Under the pieces are notes generated by a model. The model searched no databases, had not been told where the DNA came from, and saw only the letters and a list, made by a program, of their open reading frames with translations. From contig JALAGF010003705.1 of assembly GCA_030167865.1 (NCBI GenBank), forward strand, positions 1 to 64,000: 64,000 nucleotides of DNA. Direction: 5' to 3'. The first letter of the stretch is position 1. The number at the start of each line of letters is the position of its first letter. The position numbers and the translations under genes are program-made. The DNA is from Craspedostauros australis (taxonomy: Eukaryota). Of the stretch, positions 1,723-63,494 are shown one piece after another.

Positions 1723-3129
1723 TCATCGATTTGCCTTTCTTTTCGCATTGCGGGCAGAAACACCATCAACTCGGACGAGCCGATCTGCTCTCTTGTCATC
1801 CCACGCCTGTTTCAATGTCTCACTGCCCTGCAGCAGAACGTCAAAAGCCTCGCTCATGGGATCCATTGTCCCCATTAGATCCAGTGCATTCATTGTACCC
1901 CAATGTTTGCTTGTTCTCATCAGCATCTCTCCAAACAGGGCCTGTGGCCGCGACCATGTTGGAAGGGAACACAACACTGCTCTCACCTTGTTGCGATGAT
2001 TTCGCCGCAAGATACGTCCAACAAGCGCATTGTACGAATGGACATGTTCGTCAGGCAGGCGTGGATAAATGCGGAGATGGGTCAGTTGGGTAGTCTGCTC
2101 CAAGGCTTGCTGAAGTGCTTCCATTTGCGCCGAGAGGGTCTCGGGCGGAACTTCAAACATGCCAGGAGTCCCAATGTGATGGTAACTGAGAGATGACAAG
2201 CCCTTGTTTCCCAGAAGCGATACCAACGCGTCGAACATTATCATCTGCTCTTGTCGCGATGGCCCAATCCAAAAAACGGAAATATCAAGCTTCTTCAGGT
2301 GTGATGCATCCGAAAGGAGTTTGATGATCTGGTCGACTTCTTGTTGTGAGTAGGTTCGTTGTTCGTTGTAGTTCCCATTGAAATTGATGTTGAGCTTGTT
2401 GATGCGCTTATTTGACTGGAATAGCTTTGCCAAGCTATCGCAAGTGACACGGGTACAGCAAAAGCATACTTCGGTGACGCTGCAATTGTTTGGAGACAGC
2501 CATCTGCACAAATCAGCGCCGCCATTGGCGAGCTTGCAGAAACTAAACTTAACCCATTTCGAGTTTTGGGAGATGTTGAACATGAGCTTGTCGCAATCAA
2601 CAAGATCACATGAATCCAAATACACACGATGTGTCACCAGAGGGATATCGTGGAGCTGCTTCATCTTCACGAAGTATTGAGTCAAGCAGATGCATTGGTC
2701 AAATGAACATTTGGGTGGGTGTTCGGCAGCCAATCGAAGTATGAAGCGAATCGCTTGCTTGTCTTCTTCTCCGAATTGGTCAATGGTGTCGAATTTCAGA
2801 TGCAGGGATCGAATGCGCATCTGCCCACAGCCCCAGTAGAACGGATCGCTCAGTAGAACATGAGGTGATAAAGCAACGTTCTTGTGCTGTTTCACCATTG
2901 ATTTCAAGTCATCAAAAGTGAATCCTGCTTCGATGGCCATGTCCCAGTGTTCCATCGGCTTGGGTTTGACACTGTAGCAGTCGATCTGCTGTCTTGGATG
3001 ACTCTGCACATTGAACACAGTCTTCGATGACAGCTCTTTTTGATGGAGTTGTTTCCAGAAAGTCTTGAAGTCTGGATCATGATCGCTGCTGGTATTTGTG
3101 TTGGCGACAGCATCCATGTTGTGGTTCAT
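1723..3129 (-). CDS. RNI-like/leucine-rich-repeat hypothetical protein (468 aa)
   Basis: Long single-exon ORF with degenerate LxxLxL/I repeats (IRSLHL, INKLNI, LKKLDI, LSSLSY, LTHLRI) followed by an 'ILRRN...R' segment seen in expanded diatom RNI-like families. Confidence 0.55.
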   Translation of the reverse strand: MNHNMDAVANTNTSSDHDPDFKTFWKQLHQKELSSKTVFNVQSHPRQQIDCYSVKPKPMEHWDMAIEAGFTFDDLKSMVKQHKNVALSPHVLLSDPFYWGCGQMRIRSLHLKFDTIDQFGEEDKQAIRFILRLAAEHPPKCSFDQCICLTQYFVKMKQLHDIPLVTHRVYLDSCDLVDCDKLMFNISQNSKWVKFSFCKLANGGADLCRWLSPNNCSVTEVCFCCTRVTCDSLAKLFQSNKRINKLNINFNGNYNEQRTYSQQEVDQIIKLLSDASHLKKLDISVFWIGPSRQEQMIMFDALVSLLGNKGLSSLSYHHIGTPGMFEVPPETLSAQMEALQQALEQTTQLTHLRIYPRLPDEHVHSYNALVGRILRRNHRNKVRAVLCSLPTWSRPQALFGEMLMRTSKHWGTMNALDLMGTMDPMSEAFDVLLQGSETLKQAWDDKRADRLVRVDGVSARNAKRKANR

Positions 3130-3825
3130 CCTTTTCTTGTCGTTGCTAATGTTGTTGCTACTGCTGCTGTTGCTGTTGCTGCTGCTGACTGTTGCTGTTG
3201 GTGGTACAATCCTATGAGTGGAGCAGGTAGAGCTGATAGAGCAGGCAGAGTATGTGGTCCCAAATCAGTTGCGCTTGGATGGTGATTGTGAGCTCATCTG
3301 CTCAAGGTTGCTGTCCTCCATTTCATGGTCCTGTACATTGATCACAAAGCAACGCGTCGTCAGTCAACACGCCTGCGTGGACTTGCGTAGTTCCACCACT
3401 GTGTCTGGTATGGTATGGTATTGTATGCTATGCGATGGTGTAGTACGACCGTGGACAGCCACATCATGATCCGAAGCTGGCAAGCTCGCTCGCTCGCACG
3501 ATACGACTTTCGATGATGCCCAACTTGGTCATGCTGCGGAGTTGTGCCTCTTCATGTGATATCATAGTTGTGTAATATGAGTAGGCACATCCCTCTGTGA
3601 TGGTCTTGGGGGAGTCAACCATTGTGCCATACGAATGCATACTATGTACTTCGGCAGTTGGATGTCATCGAACGACTGCGGTGAGCGGATCCACGATGTG
3701 ACGAATCCACCACGATGGCTTCTTCCGTGGAAATCAGAGGCGGTTCTCACGTTTTGTCGAGAGGATGACGACGATGATGGTGACACCACTCGTGTTTCAA
3801 TCGACATCAAACGTATCCAGGACTC

Positions 3826-3990
3826 TGTCGAAATGTGTGACATCAGTAATTCCCGATTGTACGGGACTGAACCAAAATAGAGTACAGAAACAACAAATAC
3901 CCCCCTATCGTAAACGTGGCAAGCGCATGATCGATCACTCCTGAGCGTTACAGGAGCACGTTACTTTTGGGACTACGGGGAACTTCGACA
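3826..3990 (+). repeat. 5' LTR
   Basis: TG...CA ends with 7-bp terminal inverted repeats; identical to 4346-4510. Confidence 0.93.
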
Positions 3991-4345
3991 TGGTAACGTA
4001 AACCTGTGGCTTACGCCCGGGAGAGCGAAATAGTTGACTGAGGAAGAATCAGACCGGACCAACTTCATGGGTTCGATACCGCCGACCCTGATTTTCCGAA
4101 GCAAAAAGATGAACGACGATACAACGAGAGCAAAAAGTGCAGAGCAAACCGCAGGTGGAACATCGAGACCTGGGAGGGCGACCGCTTGCATCAGCGGTAT
4201 ACGAAAAAGGAACGTGACAACGGTTTCAAGCAGAGTGCGAGAGAGAAGCTGAAGGCCCAACGACCCCAGAAGAAGACACACAGAGACGGACAAGCACAAC
4301 AACCAACCAACCAATCATCGAGTACAAATCGCGAATTAGGGAGGG

Positions 4346-4510
4346 TGTCGAAATGTGTGACATCAGTAATTCCCGATTGTACGGGACTGAACCAAAATAG
4401 AGTACAGAAACAACAAATACCCCCCTATCGTAAACGTGGCAAGCGCATGATCGATCACTCCTGAGCGTTACAGGAGCACGTTACTTTTGGGACTACGGGG
4501 AACTTCGACA
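4346..4510 (+). repeat. 3' LTR
   Basis: Identical copy of 3826-3990, immediately preceded by the polypurine tract. Confidence 0.93.
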
Positions 4511-4738
4511 GGACTCATCTCGCCATACCCAATCGTCACGACCAACAATCAGTCGTGAACGAATCAACAACCAGTCCTGTGTTCAACGACGAACAATCGC
4601 GAAACGATCCATCTTGTGGCGATGATGATGGTGAAGCTACAGAAATTGCTGCAGAATACTGATACAGATCATCACAACCACAATGCTCACTGATGATGAC
4701 TGTTGCCATCAAGTATCTATCCACAGAGAACGCATACC

Positions 4739-4742
<4 letters not shown>

Positions 4743-4774
<32 letters not shown>
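4743..4774. repeat. (CT)n microsatellite
   Basis: Uninterrupted CT run of about 16 units. Confidence 0.95.
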
Positions 4775-4776
<2 letters not shown>

Positions 4777-5295
4777 GTCTCTAGAGAGGAAATACACGCG
4801 GCGGAATGGCTGGAGGATCGCGATGCTCTGATGCTGTGAGTATGGAATTGGCATACTGAGAGATTGGAGGCGTGTCACAACAAGCGCCAGTGAGTGCACA
4901 ATTATTTTGCTCGTATGACATCATACATACGACGTGGTTCGTTCTCGCCGGCAGGTTGTGCCAGATGCACAGGAACAACGAACATCCTACCGCGACTTGG
5001 CCGGCTCTATTTTAAAAGCCTAGCATCACGAACAAAAGCAAGGTAACATTTGTGACGTCACGATGACACCAATCAAATCAATCGTGGCTTGACCTTCACA
5101 AAACGCCACACACACAAATCGCGAAGCAAAACGGAAAGAACAGATCCACGATACCAACCGTCCTCCACATTTGTGGAACACATCTGTGGAACACAATCGT
5201 GTGACCACGTCATAAACATCAAGTGCTGCCTGTTTGGGGACAGCTCTTGCCACAGACCGAATCGTCACGAGCGCCGCCACCATCGATCGCGCGCA

Positions 5296-8200
5296 ATGAA
5301 ACAGCAAATCGCAAGGCTGATCAAGCTGATCGAAGATGGCACGAAGAAGCATGCGGAGCTTGCCACGGACAAGCTGTCCGAAGAGATCATCGAGCGCGCA
5401 GCGACGGACCCGTCCATCATTTGGGATCTGCTTGGGAGGCTTCAATTCCTGCTCATGTCGCGCAACTGGAAGAGCAGGTATCAGGCCAGTCTGTGCATGG
5501 AGCGGATCGCCAGCCATCTGCCGCTGCAAGATCGGCTGGACTTCTTTCGGAGGGAATGGGATGAGCGTTCGTCAAGGCCATCATCGCCGACAGAGCAACC
5601 GTCGGCCCCAAGCGAATCGGCAGTTCACCAACGCCAAGGGCACAACCAAGAGCACCAATGGCTCACGTTGCACGACGTGCAAGATCTTGAACGAATTCAA
5701 CAACACGGCCGGCTGCTGCTGTCAACGTCGGAACGAACCCGCTACGACGAGTACGAAGCAAATGAATTGAGACAGCTGGACGAAAATGCGCAGCATCTCG
5801 ACAAGTTCTGCGAGCACCGTGTCCAACTGCAACGCAATATGCTTGCGAAACGCCTTGGCTTGAGCGGCATTATCGAAGCCACATCAACGCGCCATTCCAA
5901 GGCAACAGCGATCGTACCCGCGATTAGCATGGATGATCTGCTGCCCTGGCCCAAAAGGCGCCGTGTTGGTGAAGCAGGCGCGGTCGCTGCAGGTTCTGCG
6001 ATCCGGAGAAAGGGTGATAGCAATGCCGACGTTGATGATAACCACGGCGGAGACTGCGACAGCGACAACGAAGTTCATCATGCCACATCTCTACGCGCGT
6101 TGCTGGTGATGGAATCCAGGCGAATGCGGCAATCTTCGCGGCAACAGGCTTCTCGTCTCCATCTTCATCAGAATAGTATCCCGCAGGTGCTATTGGCGAA
6201 CGATCTCGTTTTCCGCATGTTTTCTGCAGATTGGCACGAACGGCACGGTGCCTTGCTTGGAATTCGGGCACTGATATTTGCTTGGACTTCGACATCGCCG
6301 TCGCATGCGACAACGAACGCGCCAAAGCATCCGCACGGGCAGATCAGCTTTGGGTATTGGCTTCATGACATCTTGTCGCGCTGCATTTGCGTCCTGGCAT
6401 TGGATCGGTTCGGCGACTTCTCGGGAGCATCCATCTCCGAGGAAAGCCGGACCGTTGTTGCGCCGGTACGTGAAATGGCTGGCCAGGTATTTTCGACTGT
6501 TCTCGCATTGGCGCCAGCCAACATTCGAAACGAAGCAGCATCAGTCATTGTCAAGCTAATCCAGCAGGATACTTGGGAGGCACGGCATGGTGGACTTATA
6601 GCGTTGCGATTTGCATTCCTGACGTCGCCAAAGAGCCAGCTCGCGAATATTTCATTCCAGCCCAGCGCCAGTAGCACGAGCAACACCAACGTTGATGGCG
6701 ATGGCGAAAGCAAAAGCGATGAGACAGATTCAGTATTCAGTTTGCTGTCAGGCTGCCTCATGGATCCAGCCGAAGACGTGCAGGGAGCAGCTGCTCAGTG
6801 CCTGTCGATGTTGCAAAAGGATCAATCAGCATCGCAAACGAGCACGAGGAATTGCCCCGCCTACATCAACAGTCTGTGGCTCGCTATTTCCAAATGCAGT
6901 CCATTCTCTGCCTGCATCACAGATCTGCTGGGGCTCTTGATTGAAACCCTCGATCGATACGGCCAATCTTGCCTTTCGCCCATGTTGCACTCGTACGAGA
7001 AAGGAACTGAATGCCCCATCATCGATCTCCGCGAGGACGCAGAACGCCACTTGTCGAACATCATGAAAACAGCGAGCACGTTGTACGCGAAAGAAATGGC
7101 ATTCGTCGCATACAGCAAGTTCAGCGGTCTGCTCTTGGGTTGGGGTGATGCTCGCGCGGACGAATCGAGCAGCAATCATACGAAAGGTGAAGAGCCACCC
7201 ACGCATACCAATACTAGTATCTCATTCAGGATACTTTTCGACCAATGCAAGGCAATGCCATCGATCTTTTCCACCGTCATCCATCTAATCCAACATCGCT
7301 CGTTCGCAGCCACGGCACAAACCGCGCCCAATCATCGCAAATGGGATGTTCTGGCAGCGTGGGAAGAATTATCAAGGGCCATACACCAGGTTGACCCGGA
7401 CTTGCAAAGCACTGCAAATCTAAGCATGTTCGATGGCAGCCTTCTCAGCCAATATTTCGATACGTCAAGGCCTCCCAACTGCACCGCATCCAAATTGCAA
7501 ACGGATTGCATCTGCTCGTTCAAAGTCGCCGCAAGCGTCACTGCCGGCTACTTCAGCGCCGCTGGGACCTCATTCGCCTCCAGCCAAGACCGAATCGCAA
7601 ATGTTGCATCCAATCTTCAATTGGCATTGCACTCACCGTTCCTGGCGGAATGCGCCGCCGCGTGCATTTTATACCAAGCACTCGTGGTGGCGTGCGACGC
7701 GCACTGTCCTCTCAAGTTACGGCTCCAAGCGCATCTCAATTCTGTGCTGGAGAAGGGCGCGAGCTGTTCCGAGATTTTGAGGTTTCATGATCCAGCCCTC
7801 ACAGCCAGCATTTCGCAGGCCTACATGGATTTATGCTCCAACAACAGGCAGCTCTATCAAGAGCATGGCGCCAAAACGGAATCCCCGAACCTCGACCTTG
7901 TGACCAAGTGGCAATCCGCGTATCAAGAACTCATCGCAGGGATGCAGCCCGCTTCTAAAGTGACCACGAAAGATGAGATGCGTATCAACAGCCTGGTCGC
8001 AGGTTGCGTGGCATTGAACGGACCCAAGTGGCTGCCACCAAAGATCAGTCCGCTCATACGTCCATTGATGACATCGGTCAAGAATGAACTTGTGGAAGTC
8101 TTCCAACAGCAAACGGCCGATAGTGTTGCCTGCTTACTTTCAGTCCTTCAGCCTGGCGCTGGATCATCACCGCGTACTGCAGATGATGATCCGTACAGGA

Positions 8201-11200
8201 AAAGCAGGGAAAAGGTCATCACAAATTTGTGCAAACTGCTGACGAGCACGTGGAACCATCAACGCAGCACAGCAGCACGTTGCATTCGTGGGCTTCTGAA
8301 GACGCTGCCCACAGATCAGCGTTTGGATGCACTTTCACCCATCTGCGAGCATGTTGGCCACATCAAAGCGACTTTTCGGTTCCTGCAGGACCCAAATCAC
8401 CGTCGGCAGCGGCAGCGGCCGGAGGAGGAGGACTTAGCTCGTAGGGCCAAACAGCGGAACATGGTGATGGGGAGTCTGCGCCTGGTCGAGGTGATATTCG
8501 ATACCGCCAACACTCACACGAGCATGTCGAAACAGCTGTGCGAGATGTACAGCAGTCAGATTGTTCAACTTGGATGCAACATCCATGACAAGGAGCTCGC
8601 AGAAGCAGCATCCAAGTGTGTGCATGTTTTCTGCCAGCGAGCTCCATCGACAGCATTGCAACAATATGCGGTCGTTCTCTGCACCATGCTCGACAGTGAT
8701 GGCGGTGGTAGCGACAGCGGCAGCAGTGGCGAGTCCCAACCAAGCGGGCCAACTGCAAGGCAACGAGGTTGTGAGATGCTGCGCATGCTCGTGACCTGCG
8801 CTGGTGTGTCTATTGGCCCTTTCATCCGCTTCCTCCTCCCCAAAGCCATGACGTTGATGACAGATATCGATCGGGAATGTGCCAAAATTGGAGCTTCCTT
8901 GTTTGGAACGATCGTACGGTGTGCCCCACTCGCCAGCAATCAGTGCCCCGAGCCAATCGACGAGCGTGACGTTGCGAGTGATGAACATAGCAGGGTCGTC
9001 CTAGATCACCTGATCCTCGGCAAGCCGCTGCCTCCGTTCCCGCTACCACGACGCATACAGAGTGCGTTGGAGGATTCAGGCATCACTCTCCGATCCTACC
9101 AATCGGAAGGCATTGCGTGGCTACGTTTCCTCCAGAGTGTCAACCTCAACGGGGCGCTCTGTGATAGTATGGGCCTTGGCAAGACACTGCAAGCGTTGGT
9201 GGCCACAGCGATATCCCATGACAATGAGAATCGCACCATATCGAGTCAGAAAGGCGAGGAAACGGCGATGGCATCGGTAGCGGTCGTGCAACAACAGCGG
9301 CACCGTCGATGCATGTCCATCGTCGTCTGTCCATCCACCTTGGTCGGTCATTGGATGAATGAAATCAAGCGATTCTTTGGCACAGATGAAATATTCCAAC
9401 CTCATTCGATCACGGCAAGGCGAAGAAGGAAATTGGCCGACCCGCTGATTCCAGAGCGTGCCGGTGATGAATGTGTCAATATCGTGGTCATGAGCTATGC
9501 CACGCTTCGGTCAGAAATTGATCACATCGCCAGCATAGCATGGAACTACTGCATTCTGGACGAGGGTCACTTGCTCCGCAATCCCAAGACAGCCACGGCA
9601 AGGGCGACCAAGCGGATCCGAGCCAAGCACCGACTGGTCTTGACCGGAACTCCGGTGCAAAACAAAGTCCAGGATCTTTGGGCTTGCTTTGACTTTCTGA
9701 TGCCTCATTTTCTTGGATCTGACCGGGCCTTCGCGAAGCAGTACGCTAGTCCCATCGCCAAGGGTCAGCAGTCAGGAGCATCCGCGGAGGAAGTCATCAA
9801 CAGCATGCAGAAACTGAAAACCATCCATCAACAGGTGCTTCCATTCATTCTTCGGCGGACGAAGGACAAGGTTCTCAAGGAGCTTCCACCGAAGTCCATC
9901 ACCAGCATTGGATGCAACATGAGCATGCTGCAGGCCAAGTTGTACAAGACTGTCTGCAAGAATCCAACAGTTCAGAGCTCCTTGGATGCGCTTCGTGCTG
10001 GGCTGAAGGCGAGCAAAGCAGATGATGCATCGAAGGAGGTGGATGTGCGCAAGCTCAGTTCCGCGGCGCTGAAGGCGTTGATGTTCTTGAGGCTTATATG
10101 CACGCACCCATGCCTGATCCGACCGAAGGTTGCGACAAATGGGAGTGACGACGGAAGCAGCGATGATGCTCAATTCGGCGGCCGTGAAGCGTCAGGTAAA
10201 TTGGTCGCATTGCATGAACTACTGGTGAGCGCTGGAATCCTCGCCCAGATAGGAGCAGCTGACAACGACAACAGCTTGCTGTACTGCGACGCTCACGAAG
10301 ATGACGAAGACAACGATGAAGGTGGAATGAGTCAGGATGAAGTTTCAGCTGTATTGCGCCCACCAGCTGCAAGGCAGGTCGACATGAGCGCAAAGGACCA
10401 CGGTAGCAAATGCCTCATTTTTGCACAGTTCACATCAAGTCTGGATGTTGTGGAAAAGATGCTGCTCGAGACGAGCGTTTCCAGCGTTCGGCACTTGCGG
10501 CTCGATGGCCAGGTGCCTCCCGAGAAGCGGCAGGCAATCGTGGATGCGTTCAACGAGGATCAAACCATACGAGTGCTGCTGCTGACGACAAAGGTCGGAG
10601 GACTGGGGTTGAATTTGACAGGTGAGTGAAGGTGATTGCATCTTCGCGGTTCAACAGTCAGATCGTGCTTCTCGCAAGATGTTTGCCATGAATCATTGCT
10701 ACGGAAGCACGCAACCCAAACGCGCCAGCGGCGGCGATCTATCCACATTTACATCCGCATACTCACACATTGCAATCGAACTTTCTTCGTCTCTCCGAAC
10801 CAATGTGTCCCCTTTGTGGACATGCAAATGAACCAACGAACGATGTGCATCAGGCGCGGACACCGTGATATTTCTGGAACATGATTGGAATCCACACAAC
10901 GACATCCAAGCCATGGACCGAGCGCATCGGATTGGCCAAACCAAGTCTGTCAACGTGTACAAACTCATCACCATGGACTCCATCGAAGAGACCGTGATGC
11001 AGATACAGCAAACCAAGTTGGCCATGAGCGATGCGATCGTCAACACCAAGAATAGCTCCATGTTCAGCATGGGCACGGACCGATTGTTGGATATCTTCAC
11101 GTTTTCGGGGGACGGCGGCAAAGGAGCTGATGATGGATTGGCGGACAGCGACGACAACAACAGTGACAACCTCGACGTGCTCTTTCAGCGATACCTCGAG

Positions 11201-45147: not shown

Positions 45148-46827
45148 TTACTTGGTGACAATGATTTGCCTTGGTCCGGACAGTGGTTCCGAAGCACGGT
45201 GAATAGCGTAGTCACTGTAGAATGGAAAGTCGTTGGCACGGTACACCTGGACGAAGTAGCTGAGTTTCGTCGATCCATCCTCCTGGATGTCCATGCCATC
45301 CAAAGCTGTCTTCACGTCAGCGTCGGTGGTCTCGACGGTGGCAAGTCCTGGCAGAGAGCCTGCCATTTACGTACGGCAAACGTGGCAAAGCATAGCATAG
45401 CGTAAGGAATGGGTCAGTGCGTACATGATCCACAACAGAAGCACAAGCACAAAAGAAGAAGAAGAAGAAGAAGAAGGAAGGCGGCACACCAAACCGCAGT
45501 ACACACGAGGTATGAGCAACAACAAGACAGAACCACGAAAGAACTCACCTCCGACTGTGACGACTGGAGCGCCAGCCTTCTCCGCGATGGCCACGACGGA
45601 ACGCGCCGATGTGAAGGCGGACTTCTGCGCATCCGTCAGGAAGGCCAAAGCTTCGGCCTTGGCACGCACGCCCTTGGCAGCATCGATCACCTTGGCAGCC
45701 GCCTCGAGATCCGGCGTGACATTGAGGATGGCGCCAACGACTGGGCCACCTGCCTTGGCGCTGTTCTCCGAGGCGTAGGTTGCTGCGTTGCTGGGAGAGA
45801 AGGAGTAGGGGAAGGCATCGTCCGCGCCGTTGAATTTGGAGAGCTCCTCTGGCTTTTGCATGAGGTCTCTGACGATGTGCGGCGGGGAGAAGTAGTGCGA
45901 CTCGTCGCCGGAGATGACGTCGGTGGTCTGTTGCCAGAACTTGTTGCGGAAGATCTCGTACTGCTCGGTGGTGAAGTATGCCTCCAGCTGCTGCTTGTCC
46001 ACGGGCGGTGCGCCCGGCGGGTACTGCGCCAGGTAGGCCTCCATGTTCGTTCGGAAGGTGTCCTTGTCCTTCTCCATGCCCAGGAACTGGAGGCTGGCTG
46101 GGTCGACGGCGGCTGGCAGGTCCTCCGGGTACATCTCGGCGTAGGCCAGGAGGTTGGCCTTGAACTCTTCGAGGCACTCCTCGGCGCTGTACTTGGTGAG
46201 GCCCTCATCGCCGGAAGAGATGCTGTCGACGAGGTCGGCGAAGGTCTTCTTGCACAGGGCGTACTCCTGCGAGACGCCGGTGCCTGGCTCCGGGATCATG
46301 GCCTTGATGTACTCGTTCATGTCCTCGTGGCAGGAGTGCTCCGAGCCCACGACGCCCACCACGGCGTGCCCGGCGGCCGCTCCCAGCTGCGCTGCGGCCA
46401 TGCCGCTCGGCTGGCTGGCACCGAAAACCAGCAGGGTGCCTGGTGCGGTCCCGGCCATGCGGACAGCCGCGGCGCCCTCCGCAGCCGGTCTGAGCATGGC
46501 CAGGTACTCCAGAGGAATGTAGGCCGCCGCATCTCCCAGATCTCCGAAGGTGCCGTGCACGACGGAGCCATCGGGGCTGTAGGCGGCGGAGTCCTCCATG
46601 GACAGCTTGCCGCTGGCCACATCGACGGTGTGGGCCGACGTAACGACGGAGCGCTCGATGGCGCCCGGGTCCTTGGGCTTCTCCGGCGCGACGCGGATCT
46701 TCTGCTTGGGGAGGTTGTCCAGCAGAGCCTGCGGGATGGCGTACGGGTTGCTCACCTTTCGTCGGGTGTGCAGGCCTCTGGTTGCGATCTGTCGCAAGGC
46801 CTTGCGGGAGAGCGAGGAGTTCATCAT
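45148..46827 (-). CDS. Probable mitochondrial protein with a divergent MDR-type Rossmann fold; exons 46827-45549 and 45359-45148
   Basis: Arg/Ser-rich presequence MMNSSLSRKALRQIATRGLH; IPLEYLAML...GTLLVFGASQPSGMAAAQLG.AAG resembles medium-chain reductases. Intron 45548-45360 (GTGAGT...CAG) gives VTVG|GSLPG. Very strong codon bias. Confidence 0.62.
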
Positions 46828-47815
46828 CGTCGTCGTCGTCTTTTGGTTTGGTTTGGTTGCTCTGCAGCGGTGTTGTTGGTGACGGTCCTGGTGGCTACGA
46901 CAAAGGAGACAAGTCTGGATGCTTCTGCTGTCTCTCCTCTGTGCTGTTGTGATGGGTGGTGCACATGCAGAGTTTTCGTTGGGCACAAGCCATCGACGAT
47001 GGCAACAACAACGGCGTTGGCGTCCGATCACCATCGTCCAACGTTTTTCTCTGTGCTTGTTGTTGCTGTTTTGGTTTGGGGCTTTTCGAGTACCTCTCCA
47101 AGTTCTGAAATGGATCTGTTCGGTTCGGTTGCGACAGGAGCAACCGCGTAGCAAGCGTTCATGCCCCCCAGAGAGACCACGCTGCTCGTACCATACTATT
47201 ATGTATTAAATGATATGCCATGACATCGTCATCTTCAATGAGCGAGAGGATAGCAATGCAATACGTCGATGCAATTCTGCAGTACTTTGCTCCGTCTCAT
47301 TCTGCATTTGCCTGCCGATCGCATTCACAAGTCGCCAGGTCGATGCAGCAAGCGAAGGTCCATGGCTGTACTACGTGGAGCATGAACACGATAGCGGAAG
47401 CCCCGGGTGCACCACTCTTCGTCAGGTGGCGTTTGTGCCATGCTGTCACCATGCGATGGGTGGTATCTTCCTGGCATCGAAGTCAAATAGCGTGCAACCA
47501 ACCTCCTGTAACGAAGATCGTCGCTTGTTTGAGATTCGACAGCTCAAGCCAAATTAGCCCAGCCACGCGAAACCTCTCAATTGACCAAAAGGATTTCATC
47601 ATCCGCAGAATGAGGAACGAGCGCACAGGAATAACAATCGAAAATAAGGCTTGGGCGGAGCATGTGGGTGAAGTTGGTGTCTGCTCAAACTGGAGATCAT
47701 TGCTGAAGATGAAATTAGAGCATAGGGAACGTCAACACAAACTTCTCAATACCTCACGACACACAGGGTAATTGATGTCAAAATACGCTACCATCGGCAG
47801 CATAACCACCCGAAA

Positions 47816-47887
47816 GGGGGCGTAGTTCAGTGGCAGAACGTCTGTTTCGCATACAGAAGGTCGCGGGTTCGATTCCCGTCGCCTCCA
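47816..47887 (+). tRNA. tRNA-Ala(CGC)
   Basis: Acceptor stem GGGGGCG/CGCCTCC with G3:U70 and discriminator A; anticodon arm TCTGT-TTCGCAT-ACAGA; T-loop GGTTCGATTCC; T-rich Pol III terminator downstream; no encoded CCA. Confidence 0.96.
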
Positions 47888-48074
47888 TTTCTTTTTGCTT
47901 CTCGTTGTGATGGCAATCACGAGTGATTGCTTCCACATGACTGAAACATCTTTTGGTCTCTTTGTTGCGCAAATCCAAACCCAAACACCGACACGCGAAC
48001 GCAATCACCAACCACCAGATCCATTCCACAATCTCACAAAACAACAGCCAGGCCACAAGGCAACGACAACCACG

Positions 48075-50093
48075 ATGACGGGAGAAGCACAAGCAACGGA
48101 CAGCTCCACCACCATCTCCCATGCCAATGGCGCAGGCACAAGAGGAAAGTGCACCTTCTGCCAACGTTACGGCAACGTGTTACGGTGCAGCCGTTGTCAC
48201 TCCACCTTCTATTGCTCGCAGAGTTGCCAGAAGAAGCACTGGAAACATGGCCACAAAAAGGCCTGCAAGGCCATTGCCGCCATGATCGAGCTGCACGGCA
48301 TGACGGCGGGGATATCCATGGAGGACGCTTCCGACAGTGCCACCAAGGCCACAGCCGCGCTGGACTACTGGAGAGAAACGAGCTCATCTCCGGAGGTCTT
48401 GACGGAAACTCGACCCGCGCCGAAAGTTGTGAGCAAACCGAACGAAGGCATTGCAGGCACACGACAAGACAAGTCAGAACTCGGCGACGAGAACGATCGA
48501 TCTTCCACCAACATTCAGACAGAAGGCGACGAGCCTTCGATCGAGAAAGACATCGGCTCCTGCGCAAGCACAAAGGACTCTCAGAATTACGTTGATGCCA
48601 ACGTGGATGGCTTCATGGTGGAGCACATGTCCAGGCTTTCGCGGTATCACATCACGTTCAAGTTGTCGAAAGAGATGCCGCATGGATCACACTTGCATTG
48701 CACCTTGCATCCTGATGTTACTTCATCAACCCTCATCGTGCATGTGGCCGATGAGCGATCCGAACCTCTGATCCGGATCAAGCTCCTTCGGCACATTCTG
48801 CCGGGCCCTCCATTCACAACCACCAACACCACAACCACCAACACCACAACCAACAATGTCACAGCCAGTCATGGCACAATATCTTGCGACGGCGACAGAA
48901 ACGACGTCTACCAAATCCATCTCAGCTACCGTTCACCGTACGAAGAAAACTGTGGCGAACTTTTCGATGACGCAACCACATATACGACCACTCCGACGAG
49001 CCGGCTCACGTCGTTGCATTGTGCCAACTGCAATCATCCCATCGTGCCCGCCAACAAGATCCAGCGCATACTGCCAATGCCGCAGGGGCATTGGGATGAA
49101 ATATCCGATTACTTGATTTGCTACGAAGGGCAACCGGCGACCGAATTCTCCAAAGCCTCCAACGAACCTCGCGAGGGGATGGTGTTGGAAGACGCGACAG
49201 TGTTCTGCGTTCATGCCAACGACGCCAAAGAAGCTGTTGAAGTCACATCCATGCCATTGTACGGCGAACCACCCACAACAACGGGCAATGGCAGCGTCAC
49301 TTCGCCCAACGCGAATGATGGACTGCAGCACGACCAATCGATCACTCTCCGTGGCGGCACACGGATATGGAAAGACGCAGTAGTCGCAAACGCCATGGCG
49401 GGCGCATTCACTGTCTCTTGCGGTGCATGCAATTTCAATCTCGGAACCACGATCTCCTCGTCTTCATCGTTTCGACTTTTCAAACACCACCTCGCGCCCA
49501 CCACGATCAGAATCACCAACTTTCTGTTGCATGAGGTGATCCGCTACGCCGAATCCAAGGCCATCTTCACATGGATGATCCAGCAGCACGATGACTTGCA
49601 GAACATCATGACCGCATTCACGTATCAAAAGCAATGTCTGCTGCTTCGACTGGTGCAGTGGGACTCGCAGATTGCGACCGCGAACAGCGACACCTTCGAA
49701 CGGCATGCCAAGTTGGTGTATGAAGAGAGCGTGGATCGCACGTCATTGGAGGGCGGAGGTGAAGGAGGACAATGGCTATGGGGCGGGGTCGATTTGTGTT
49801 GCCCACCACCGCAGGGGTTCATGGAAGATGCAAACGAAAACGAAAACGCAGGCGATGGCGATGACGACGACAACGACGACGACAACGACGACGACGACGA
49901 CAATGCTGTTCAGAGTCCGCAACCGTCGACGGTGCGGATCAGTCTTTCCAAGGAAGAATATGACGAAGTCAAACGAACGCTTGCTGAGGGCGGGCCATGT
50001 CTGCCCCAATCGGTAGTGGATGTGACATTGGCATTGAAGATGGGCAGGAGTCACGTGACGTCGGCCATGGGAATGGCGGTTCTCAAGGTTTAA
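48075..50093 (+). CDS. zf-MYND plus HECT_2 (UBE3D/Ipa1-like) protein
   Basis: MYND finger CTFC...CSRC...YCSQSCQKKHWKHGHKKAC; HECT_2-like CANC...ILPMPQGHWDEISDYLICY...CGAC...FRLFKH. Start ATG is inferred. Confidence 0.72.
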   Translation: MTGEAQATDSSTTISHANGAGTRGKCTFCQRYGNVLRCSRCHSTFYCSQSCQKKHWKHGHKKACKAIAAMIELHGMTAGISMEDASDSATKATAALDYWRETSSSPEVLTETRPAPKVVSKPNEGIAGTRQDKSELGDENDRSSTNIQTEGDEPSIEKDIGSCASTKDSQNYVDANVDGFMVEHMSRLSRYHITFKLSKEMPHGSHLHCTLHPDVTSSTLIVHVADERSEPLIRIKLLRHILPGPPFTTTNTTTTNTTTNNVTASHGTISCDGDRNDVYQIHLSYRSPYEENCGELFDDATTYTTTPTSRLTSLHCANCNHPIVPANKIQRILPMPQGHWDEISDYLICYEGQPATEFSKASNEPREGMVLEDATVFCVHANDAKEAVEVTSMPLYGEPPTTTGNGSVTSPNANDGLQHDQSITLRGGTRIWKDAVVANAMAGAFTVSCGACNFNLGTTISSSSSFRLFKHHLAPTTIRITNFLLHEVIRYAESKAIFTWMIQQHDDLQNIMTAFTYQKQCLLLRLVQWDSQIATANSDTFERHAKLVYEESVDRTSLEGGGEGGQWLWGGVDLCCPPPQGFMEDANENENAGDGDDDDNDDDNDDDDDNAVQSPQPSTVRISLSKEEYDEVKRTLAEGGPCLPQSVVDVTLALKMGRSHVTSAMGMAVLKV

Positions 50094-59820: not shown

Positions 59821-62766
59821 CTAATCTTCGGTAGTCTTGGTCAGCCCTGACGGTGCCTGGTGCCCCAGCCGCTTCCAGATCCTGTCATAGAACTCCTTCT
59901 CCCCAGGTCGTCGCCCACTGATCTCATCGCCCACAACGAAGCCGTGCAGGTATGTCAACTGCATGCGGACATCGGATGGACACAATGGACAGCGACGCAC
60001 GTGGTCCCAGAGGTCTGTGAGCTTGCTTGGCAACGTGCGTCGTCTACCGGGGAAGATGCGGCATAGCCCCATCCGGTTGAGCTCGCAGCAATGCCGGCAG
60101 GCGATGCCGGCCAAACCCAGCGGCAGCGTCTTGCGATTGCCAGTCCGTTCCACCTGCTGCAGCTCGACCCTCTGAACCTGGGTCATGAATTCGTAAAGGA
60201 ATTCTGGCACCAACGGTTTGTCGTCGGGATCAACCAACAGCATGGGCAGATCAGTCTCAGCGGCTGGCCTCGAGCTGTGCGCCAAGCGATCCAACATCTG
60301 CTCTGACGTCAACGTCGACGCACCATCGAACGGCAGTGGATGAGCACCGAGAGCGTTAGGGTCTTCATTGATCCAGATTCCGTATTCGGAATCGACCAAC
60401 CCGCGCTTCATGGCGGCGTACACCCAGTAGTGCTTTGAATCTGTCGCACCCTGCGACGTTTTGGCTTTCAGCTCCAAGAACCGATGGCGCAGCGAACTTG
60501 GAATCGCGGTGCATTTGCCAAAGTGATCCCGCAGCATCATTGTCAGGCTTTGGTAGATTCGGCTCAGCGACGAAGGGAAGCTGGAGGATCGGCTCGCACG
60601 CGCATTCATCTTCATGTGAGCACAGAAGCGGCATCGGATACCGACCTGCCCATGCGTGACCTTCTTACTGCTGTTCCGAGTGCGAACGTCCAACATGCTG
60701 GCCCGGAAGATTTCCACCAATTCCATGCGAACGAAGCACAGGAACTCTGACAACCAATTGTGATCCTCATCGGCGGCGAGCGGGATTGGTGTTCTGTCGG
60801 TGTATAATGGGATCATTGTGGACTCGATGGATGGCAATGGAAGCAACGAGGTAACCATGCGATTCAGCGCATCTGGATCTGTGGCACGAAGCTCTGTGTG
60901 GTGCTCCCTTCTTGCTGATGGCATGTAGCCGTATGGAGGCTGGAAGGCTGCTGATACCATCGCCAAGTCTTGTTGTCTACTGCTGTTATTGCCACCAACA
61001 TCCCCACCATTAGCAGCAGCAGCAGATGGCCAATCCATCGCTCTGGCGCTACGAGATTCTTGGTCGTCCACTGCTGATGTTCGTGTTGAGGACATCGCAG
61101 CCATGACGGCAGCTTCATCGGCCCAAGCAGCACGGGATGCTCGTGATGACGAGAGTCCTGCCGGAAAGGCCGGGTGGTGGGAGGACTGCGGAGCAAGGGG
61201 GTGGACTGATGCCGATGAATGCGATCTTGGGCGTGAGTGCCCGGGCACAAAATGGATGCTATCATCCACGGCAGGATAGTCTTGGCCACGTTGGAAGGAA
61301 GGAGCCATTGCTGAGTCAGCTCGTTCAGGATATGCGCCTTCCTCACCTGCACCTGGTGATTCGTGAGGCCTGCCGGGATGTTGATGACGATGATGGCGTG
61401 CAGAAGAGAATGGTGGACCAAGTGACTGAGCTACCTGCGCCCAAGGCATCGCGTGTTGGGCATTGTCGTTGGTCGCACCAGTGCGTGGGTCTACCAAGAA
61501 GTATGCAGGATCAACTGGGCCTGAGCGAAGGTGGTAGTCAGCAAGGTGATGGTGCATGTGCTGGCTCTGTTCGTAGAACGCTTCTCGGGGGTACGCAGAG
61601 TGCTGTTTGTCTTGGTAATGATAGCGATTGTAGGGTTGGATAGCATTGCTGTGAGGGTAGTGGTGCTGTGGGTGTAACGGTGGGTACTGCTGAGCTGGGT
61701 CTGCATCTGCACCTGCACCTGGACGTGGATATGTCTCATCGAGATGTCGTCTGGAGGAAGGTAAACGAGGAGACGTGTATTGAGGTGGGTTGTAGAGAGA
61801 CTCCTGCCGTCTGTCGTCGTGCATGGTTGCGTGGTGAACTCGCGATTCTTGGTGTAGTCTTGGATCCGCGCTCATAGTGGGGCCTCCGTGAAGGTAGTAT
61901 GCTGGATCAGCATGCATGTCATGCCTGCCAACCATTGCACTAGGATCTCCATCAATACCAACACCAACACCAGCTCTGGACCACGGGTAGCCCGCAATGG
62001 CACCAGGAGGATCTCTGATGTTGTGCATACCTGCTGCCCGGTCGCTGTCATAGCCACCTTTGGCATCATCTACGACCTGTGTGTGAGCTTCGTGCCTTCG
62101 GCGTTTGAGGAGGCTAGGGCTGTATGGATCCCGAGCACTGACGTCAGCATGCGCACGGGAAGAGAGAACTCTGGGAGATCCAGTCATCAGGTCCAGCTGG
62201 GCACGTTCATCGTCCCTTCTAGTGCCGTGCACAGCCTCTGCATGATTCGCTCGTTGCTGTTGCGGTAGACGTTGCTGCAGGGACAGTGATTCGGACGATT
62301 TGACCTCAGTTCCAACCGGCTTGTTGCCATCCTTCATCATCATCTGCTCTCCTCGCTCCATGTGCCCGTCAGATGCATCGCCGATGGCGCTTCGTGGATC
62401 GAATGTTCTGTGAATATCAACGTCACTGCCACCAGCAGCAGCAATGGAAGTGATCCCGCCAGCTTTCATGTCGTCTTGATCTGGAGATCGCCGTTTCTTT
62501 GAACCGAGCCTACCTGCTTGCTCGTCATGTCTTGGGAATGGAGGTTGTCTGTTCATCCGGGCTGCAGCTTCCGTAGCGAATGGTACAGGGACGAATGCTT
62601 CTCGCTGGTTGTCGTTGTCGTCGCCGTCGTTGTTGGTGTTGTTGTTATCATGGGTTGAGAGACGATGGTTCCCATCAGCAGCAGCATGCAGCTCTTCGTC
62701 CGTCCGGCCCTGCATGTGAAACGGGCACAGTCTTGTTGTTGGTGCTGGAACGATCAACTCGAGCAT
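59821..62766 (-). CDS. Uncharacterised protein with a low-complexity N-terminus and two C-terminal CxxC...H...C putative zinc modules
   Basis: Long ORF with repeats VGIRCRFC...FPSSLSRIYQS...DHFGKC..IP and AGIACRHC...FPG...DHVRRCPLCP. Start inferred at MLELIV. Confidence 0.7.
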   Translation of the reverse strand: MLELIVPAPTTRLCPFHMQGRTDEELHAAADGNHRLSTHDNNNTNNDGDDNDNQREAFVPVPFATEAAARMNRQPPFPRHDEQAGRLGSKKRRSPDQDDMKAGGITSIAAAGGSDVDIHRTFDPRSAIGDASDGHMERGEQMMMKDGNKPVGTEVKSSESLSLQQRLPQQQRANHAEAVHGTRRDDERAQLDLMTGSPRVLSSRAHADVSARDPYSPSLLKRRRHEAHTQVVDDAKGGYDSDRAAGMHNIRDPPGAIAGYPWSRAGVGVGIDGDPSAMVGRHDMHADPAYYLHGGPTMSADPRLHQESRVHHATMHDDRRQESLYNPPQYTSPRLPSSRRHLDETYPRPGAGADADPAQQYPPLHPQHHYPHSNAIQPYNRYHYQDKQHSAYPREAFYEQSQHMHHHLADYHLRSGPVDPAYFLVDPRTGATNDNAQHAMPWAQVAQSLGPPFSSARHHRHQHPGRPHESPGAGEEGAYPERADSAMAPSFQRGQDYPAVDDSIHFVPGHSRPRSHSSASVHPLAPQSSHHPAFPAGLSSSRASRAAWADEAAVMAAMSSTRTSAVDDQESRSARAMDWPSAAAANGGDVGGNNSSRQQDLAMVSAAFQPPYGYMPSARREHHTELRATDPDALNRMVTSLLPLPSIESTMIPLYTDRTPIPLAADEDHNWLSEFLCFVRMELVEIFRASMLDVRTRNSSKKVTHGQVGIRCRFCAHMKMNARASRSSSFPSSLSRIYQSLTMMLRDHFGKCTAIPSSLRHRFLELKAKTSQGATDSKHYWVYAAMKRGLVDSEYGIWINEDPNALGAHPLPFDGASTLTSEQMLDRLAHSSRPAAETDLPMLLVDPDDKPLVPEFLYEFMTQVQRVELQQVERTGNRKTLPLGLAGIACRHCCELNRMGLCRIFPGRRRTLPSKLTDLWDHVRRCPLCPSDVRMQLTYLHGFVVGDEISGRRPGEKEFYDRIWKRLGHQAPSGLTKTTED

Positions 62767-63494
62767 AGGTGTGGATTTGTGTTGCGTATGGGTGGCAAGA
62801 GGATGGGGTATTAAACAAGTGTAGTATTGGTGTGGTATTGGTGTGATGTGCGAGCGTAGTGGAGTATGTGCTCTATGCGAAACTCTGTCTGCCTTTGTCT
62901 CTCTCTCTCTGTGTCTGTCTCTGAATGCGAAATGTTGTGGAGGCCTTTTATGCTGGATTGTCAAAATGGTCGAATGTTGCAATGTTCCAACGTATAGTAT
63001 CGTGCAAACCATACAGCCATGCATTCAATCATCTATCGAACCACTGGTGTGCATGTATGGTATGGTTCGGGTGTGCGCTGCCTCGTCCACCCGATAGAGA
63101 GTTGCTGTGTGTTTGGAGAGAAGGGAGGACTGTGCGGTTTTGTGTTGTCACTTTCGTTGTGCCCTTGTACAGGTGCCGCCTCTATTGTCCGCCAGTCCGC
63201 AGTCTCTTGACGTGGTTTGGTTGCGATTAGATTGCCTGCCTGTCTTTGCGGTGTCCAGCCACAACCACAACGACAGCAATGTCAATAGTAATGCCGACTT
63301 GCCGAAGCAGAAGTGTTGATTTAGGAAGGGGAGAGAAGGTGAGGGGAAGAGAGAGAGAGAGGCAGAAATAATTTTGTTGATGTTGGTGGTCGATCCGCTC
63401 ACAGATCCGGTGATTTTGTCGTGGACGAATGGCCTGTGCAGACAAACGAACCTTGGGTGTGAATGCGTTCTTCTGTGCACCAATCGTCTGACGA

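Follow-up and report, generated by a model that had tools for sequence, protein, structure and literature searches.

The stretch of DNA considered here, called the window in what follows, is 64 kb long, has a G+C content of 54% and is gene-dense. A Pfam scan covered 32 of its 76 stop-to-stop open reading frames (ORFs) of at least 180 aa, taking the longest at each place, the 44 omitted being mostly shorter overlapping frames. The matches are to ordinary housekeeping genes of eukaryotes: the Mot1-like SNF2 helicase gene described below, a gamma-tubulin complex component, YL1, aldehyde dehydrogenase, pirin, XendoU, Pex16, Rad4 and Der1. ORFs with no Pfam family include those at 59824-63024 (minus strand, 1067 aa) and 45370-47205 (612 aa). 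The only tRNA gene, a tRNA-Ala (CGC) at 47816-47887, is placed immediately upstream of a MYND/HECT-like ORF (47826-50090), with overlapping coordinates.

The element described below occupies 691 bp of a divergent intergenic region that measures about 2.2 kb. It is flanked by a leucine-rich-repeat (LRR)-like ORF, read on the minus strand (1726-3264, with its first ATG near 3129), and by a Mot1-like SNF2 helicase gene, read on the plus strand (5056-10626, with its first ATG near 5290). A simple repeat of CTG/CTGTTG type (3147-3193) falls within the beginning of the LRR-like ORF; another, (CT)n, is found at 4733-4788, about 220 nt downstream of the element. No Pfam family was detected in the LRR-like ORF, and a search of 5.8 billion protein clusters returned one relative, at 44% identity. 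Its look-alikes in a protein language model, which are to be taken as a lead only, were diatom hypothetical proteins and RNI-type leucine-rich-repeat proteins; these look-alikes are the only support obtained for a diatom host, which is probable.

A repeat finder run on 3000-5500 returned two direct repeats of 165 nt that are 100% identical (Table 1). Their termini, TGTCGAA...TTCGACA, have TG..CA ends and make up a perfect inverted repeat of 7 nt, as in long terminal repeats (LTRs), and similarity within the pair ends abruptly at the LTR edges. Two LTRs and a 355-bp interior, which opens with TGGTAACGTAAACC and closes with AATTAGGGAGGG, an 8-nt purine run, add up to an element of 685 bp. The hexamer GGACTC stands immediately outside both LTRs, forming a perfect 6-bp duplication, a length inside the 4-6 bp expected for target sites of LTR retrotransposons. 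Across the 64-kb window, direct repeats of at least 60 nt form one family, which is this LTR pair.

Table 1. Features of the LTR element and its target site, in window coordinates
Feature	Position	Strand	Basis
Target-site duplication, left copy, GGACTC	3820..3825	+	Identical to 4511-4516
5' LTR, 165 nt, TG...CA, TGTCGAA/TTCGACA	3826..3990	+	100% identical to 4346-4510
Candidate primer-binding site, TGGTAACGTAAACC	3991..4004	+	Position after the 5' LTR; TGG start
Non-coding interior, 355 nt, A-rich	3991..4345	+	Composition; Pfam, protein and Rfam searches without matches
Polypurine tract, AGGGAGGG	4338..4345	+	Adjoins the 3' LTR; purine run
3' LTR, 165 nt	4346..4510	+	Identical to the 5' LTR
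Target-site duplication, right copy, GGACTC	4511..4516	+	Identical to 3820-3825

At the spacing of the GGACTC pair, two 6-mers agree at 14 of 63,303 positions in the window (chance of about 2.2e-4). Of 348 interior positions, 11 (3.2%) are the end of a purine run of at least 8 nt. The joint occurrence of LTRs, target-site duplication, primer-site position and polypurine tract, each at the right place, is not due to chance. The borders can also be read in another way, an A before each GGACTC giving a 7-bp duplication and LTRs that are one base shorter; the canonical parse is the one with TG..CA ends and a 6-bp duplication. The LTR pair, the duplication, the TGG start, the polypurine tract and the interior had all been described in the first-pass annotation, and each was recovered at the positions of Table 1.

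The interior differs in composition from its surroundings, with 35.5% A and 13% T on the plus strand against about 25% each in the flanks. Judged by the positions of the primer-binding site and polypurine tract, this A-rich, T-poor strand is the sense strand. The longest frame of the element, at 4042-4464, has 140 codons and contains no ATG until its last residues. Pfam gave no family for four short ORFs that lie within or next to the element. The large protein libraries were searched with one of the six frames, that at 4042-4464. It had no relatives in a word-indexed search of 5.8 billion clusters (proteins of 77-245 aa) and no matches among 1.84 billion representatives (HMMER, E<=0.001). Rfam gave no match at E<=1 on either strand of 3500-4900, with neither a hammerhead nor a 5S rRNA, and none at E<=10 for 3985-4130. 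The earlier description of the interior as non-coding is upheld by the searches against Pfam, proteins (for the 140-aa frame) and Rfam.

Several known kinds of non-coding element were considered. Retrozymes require a hammerhead in each LTR and were rejected on the Rfam result for both strands of 3500-4900 (no match at E<=1); one CUGANGA word is present in the interior, in no ribozyme context. The LTRs of Cassandra-type TRIMs carry sequence derived from 5S rRNA, and such an element was likewise rejected, Rfam having no match. A viroid-like or rod-like fold of the 520-nt unit made of one LTR and the interior found no support either, since its folding energy corresponded to z = +0.79 and 77 of 100 shuffled sequences folded at least as well. 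A tRNA-derived, SINE-like insert was dismissed, ARAGORN finding no tRNA at its default, -ps and -ps80 settings and Rfam giving no match at E<=10; at -ps70 only two calls were made, with "introns" of 74 and 409 nt. The B-box/T-loop consensus word of RNA polymerase III promoters is GGTTCGANNCC, and a perfect match to it, GGTTCGATACC, was observed in the interior at 4070-4080. The only other match in the 64 kb falls in the tRNA-Ala gene, with 0.63 expected by chance, and at least two matches occurred in 13 of 100 shuffled sequences.

The letters TGG, which would suit a tRNA primer, directly follow the 5' LTR, where the candidate primer-binding site begins TGGTAACG. The primer site of the tRNA-Ala, the sole tRNA of the window, would start TGGTGGAG, which the element matches over TGGT only. 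If the candidate site is taken to be complementary to a tRNA 3' end, the acceptor stem of that tRNA would be A/U-rich and begin AACGUAA, which would be unusual. The primer-binding site proposed in the first-pass annotation is thus borne out in its TGG start; its support consists of the TGG, and the tRNA-Ala in the window matches no further than TGGT.

About 24 base pairs, arranged in four short stems, are possible between the last third of the LTR and the first 33 nt of the interior, which take in the putative primer-binding site. In the fold of 3930-4060, LTR positions 3938-3965 pair with leader positions 3992-4023, and eight consecutive pairs join 3958-3965 of the LTR to 3992-3999 of the leader. 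The minimum free energy of the hairpin 3938-4024 has a z of -1.31, with 24 of 200 shuffled sequences as good. The LTR/leader duplex has an energy of -34.3 kcal/mol, and 38 of 1000 shuffled leaders and 57 of 1051 natural 60-nt windows do at least as well. A U5/leader stem, or self-priming by fold-back, at 3938-4024 is marginal on these figures and is offered as a lead.

Within the window, the element has no relatives. A blastn search (word size 7, E<=10) returned only self matches, the next best being of 13-52 nt with E>=0.34, and neither a second copy of the element nor a solo LTR was found in the 64 kb, which counts against its membership in a TRIM family. Exact 21-mers were also scanned against sequence collections: those across the LTR end and primer-binding site had no match in metagenome or viral contigs, those across the polypurine tract and LTR start had none in viral contigs, and those from the LTR start had none in metagenome or prokaryote genome contigs. 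These scans required exact matches in collections with few eukaryote genomes and are weak negatives. Reverse transcriptase, integrase, protease and gag were all missing from the 32 Pfam-scanned ORFs, and the lack of an autonomous partner among them also counts against a TRIM.

With no difference in 165 nt, the divergence of the LTRs is at most 1.8% (95% upper bound). The insertion is compatible with a recent date, and the LTRs are too short for sharp dating. The element had been called very young in the first-pass annotation; the LTR identity on which that was based stands, and a sharp age does not follow from a bound of 1.8% drawn from 165 nt.

Independent evidence was obtained from a public sequencing run, coded X1, that comprises 12.2 Mb of contigs and for which a DNA or RNA library is not on record. 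Of three candidate runs it is the one with part of the stretch, containing one third of the sampled words of 3400-4950; no run recorded as RNA is listed as having the stretch. When contigs were placed on 2800-5800 at a likeness of at least 80%, runs X2 and X3 had none there. In X1, one contig of 551 nt with a depth of 408.6 runs through 4029-4345 and on into 3826-4058. The 30 letters at either end fall on the same position, which makes the contig a closed cycle of 521 nt in the 31-mer graph; it contains both the interior-to-LTR and the LTR-to-interior junctions. The unit is about 99% identical to the window copy, with substitutions at 3969, 3983, 4062, 4081, 4084 and 4148 and one base inserted after 4086, and its interior boundaries are those of the window copy. 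Depth is 0 in X1 over the unique flanks (3709-3809 and 4517-5800), and the eight neighbouring contigs among those listed have depths of 9-36, compared with 408.6 for the unit. Over the 3' part of the second LTR (bin 4416-4516), contigs other than those listed add a depth of 22.6, which could represent a minor LTR variant or a junction.

The X1 unit is either amplified, if the run is DNA, or strongly transcribed with flanks that are not, if it is RNA, and both readings fit a live or recently live retroelement. A DNA library would speak to copy number and not to expression, an RNA library the reverse. At 3969/4489 and 3983/4503, the two window LTRs share G and C, respectively, and the X1 unit carries A and T; the two LTRs are therefore closer to each other than copies of the family are. 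Such a likeness between LTRs, above that between family copies, is the expected signature of a single reverse-transcription event, and gene conversion between the LTRs would yield it as well. The earlier suggestion of a possibly active family is supported indirectly by X1, with its non-identical unit of high depth whose flanks are absent.

The other X1 contigs mostly concern the neighbouring gene. Placement on 2800-5800 gave 200 contigs in all, almost all of them on 2800-3650 by the listed pieces and depth bins, that is, on the LRR-like ORF and its upstream region, where depth is 9-36 among the pieces listed. By likeness, 33 of the 200 are at 99% or above, 46 at 95-99%, 74 at 90-95% and 47 below 90%. 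Because almost all of these contigs are placed there, the LRR-like ORF belongs to a large, recently expanded family, or repeat, in the X1 organism. The many X1 contigs are to be set against the single relative found among the protein clusters.

Altogether, it is probable that 3820-4516 represents one insertion, on the plus strand, of a 685-bp non-coding LTR retrotransposon that is a TRIM by structure. Miniature size, LTRs, a polypurine tract, a flanking duplication and the lack of coding capacity are the TRIM features seen, and the structural reading made at first sight, a non-coding LTR retroelement with a target-site duplication, is retained. What is established directly is the element's anatomy, its lack of coding capacity and the slightly different, high-depth LTR-plus-interior unit in X1; from the known behaviour of LTR elements we infer transcription, mobilisation in trans, the identity of the partner and the recency of the insertion. 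On this model, transcription would begin inside the 5' LTR and stop inside the 3' LTR, and an autonomous LTR element located elsewhere would supply the Gag, reverse transcriptase and RNase H that package the RNA and copy it into DNA. The first (minus) strand would be primed at the TGG-starting site just after the 5' LTR and the second (plus) strand at AGGGAGGG just before the 3' LTR; reverse transcription primed at these two sites would regenerate two identical LTRs. The integrase of the partner would then join the TG..CA ends to a 6-bp staggered cut, giving rise to the GGACTC duplication.

A different history would be the deletion in place of a full-length autonomous LTR element, which would have lost gag-pol and left a dead, single-locus relic instead of a member of a propagating family. 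This is rather unlikely. It would agree with the failure to find another copy in the window or in the 21-mer collection scans, and with an LTR length like that of an autonomous diatom copia element, for which 163 bp is quoted for Blackbeard (PMC2806351); if X1 is RNA, its contig could moreover be a transcript of the same locus in another strain. However, no coding relic was detected in the interior by Pfam or, for the 140-aa frame, in the protein libraries, and X1 has a unit with the same interior boundaries, seven differences, a depth of 408.6 and flanks at 0, a depth better suited to many copies or to strong LTR-driven transcription than to a silent relic.

A more ambitious version of the TRIM reading is unlikely as well. 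It would make the element part of the first anatomically defined, live TRIM family of diatoms, with a 521-nt unit that is highly amplified or expressed, possibly in tandem or circular form, and that is primed by fold-back of U5 on the leader (3958-3965 with 3992-3999) rather than by a tRNA. Fold-back priming would account for a primer-binding site unlike a tRNA 3' end.

It is improbable that the 520-nt unit of LTR and interior is instead a tandem or circular repeat family that spreads by recombination, of which the window would hold a copy of 1.3 units. The self-closing X1 contig, with its period of 521 nt, high depth and no flank, is what such a family would give. However, any LTR-interior-LTR element closes likewise in a 31-mer graph, and the closed cycle fits LTR-interior-LTR copies, tandem arrays and circles equally. 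In the window copy a single interior is present and the perfect 6-bp duplication lies outside both repeats, an arrangement that tandem duplication does not yield. Folding of the unit is also unremarkable (z = +0.79), and Rfam gave no ribozyme. An assembly artefact, or a chance duplication resembling an LTR element, is very improbable: mis-assembly can create identical repeats, and no contig of X1-X3 covers the flanks of the element, but TG..CA ends, inverted repeat, TGG, purine tract and exact flanking duplication all coincide, and both internal junctions are present in the independent run X1.

The preferred reading, a TRIM insertion, can be set beside known systems. Plant TRIMs have LTRs of about 100-250 bp, a short non-coding interior and a total length of less than 1 kb, and are presumed to be mobilised in trans; the size thresholds in use are an element under about 1-1.5 kb and LTRs of about 100-250 bp. 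Their primer-binding site is complementary to tRNA-Met and their duplications are mostly of 5 bp. Compared by description, the present element resembles them in its short LTRs, non-coding interior, polypurine tract, site in primer-binding position, flanking duplication and length below 1 kb. It has the TGG start of a candidate primer-binding site and, unlike most of them, a 6-bp duplication. In diatoms, to our knowledge, detailed study has been limited to full-length copia elements.

For the mobilising partner, a Ty1/copia element of CoDi type is plausible by analogy, because diatom copia LTRs are equally short (Blackbeard, 163 bp). That LTR drives a reporter, as quoted from PMC2806351, and by description CoDi elements share with the present element very short LTRs (163 vs 165 bp) and a short flanking duplication (PMC2806351). 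They differ in that CoDi elements are several kb long and encode gag-pol, whereas the present element encodes nothing, the likeness being one of description (PMC2806351). The duplications quoted for copia elements of Phaeodactylum tricornutum are of 4 bp (TTCC) and 5 bp (ACAAG) (PMC2806351); the 6 bp found here are longer than both, which counts against a copia partner (PMC2806351).

Elements classed as TRIMs have been listed in microalgae. For P. tricornutum (Phatr3), the quoted part of the annotation gives a "Putative TRIM/LARD" class of 27 copies and 7,291 bp, assigned automatically and with no anatomy (PMC5859163). By description, this class and the present element are alike in being non-coding, LTR-bounded, from a diatom and classed by structure (PMC5859163, as quoted); the host here may be a different diatom, the window having 54% G+C. 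In the haptophyte Tisochrysis lutea, 240 TRIM library sequences are reported to make up 5.48% of the genome, in automatic classes with no manual checks according to the quoted text (PMC5963040). Compared by description, these too are non-autonomous LTR derivatives in a marine microalga, of another phylum (PMC5963040, as quoted). Retrozymes, in the excerpt from PMC5680766, are non-autonomous LTR retroelements whose LTR-plus-interior unit can accumulate as small circular RNA, a topology that the self-closing 521-nt X1 contig resembles on paper (PMC5680766). However, the retrozymes of that excerpt carry hammerhead ribozymes, whereas the present element has none at E<=1 and is not unusually structured (PMC5680766).

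A full-text search for TRIMs in diatoms and microalgae returned, for diatoms, only the Phatr3 annotation (PMC5859163). One further paper (PMC2821323) was discarded, having matched only through "long-terminal-repeat retrotransposons" with no TRIM content, and excerpts of the literature on the primer-binding site of diatom copia elements held nothing on TRIMs. The suggestion that such a family may be undescribed in this lineage is weakened by the putative TRIM/LARD class of P. tricornutum, with its 27 copies as quoted (PMC5859163). TRIMs are a known kind of element, already recorded in diatoms as automatically assigned classes. The novelty here amounts at most to a clearly delimited family member from another host.

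As it stands, the element is a clean textbook example and holds no surprise. If the family is mobile, it would mark active reverse-transcription and integration machinery in the host alga, and it would constitute a compact, LTR-driven non-coding vehicle inserted in a bidirectional promoter region. A mobile family of this kind would also serve to mark the divergence of diatom strains and regulatory change driven by transposons.
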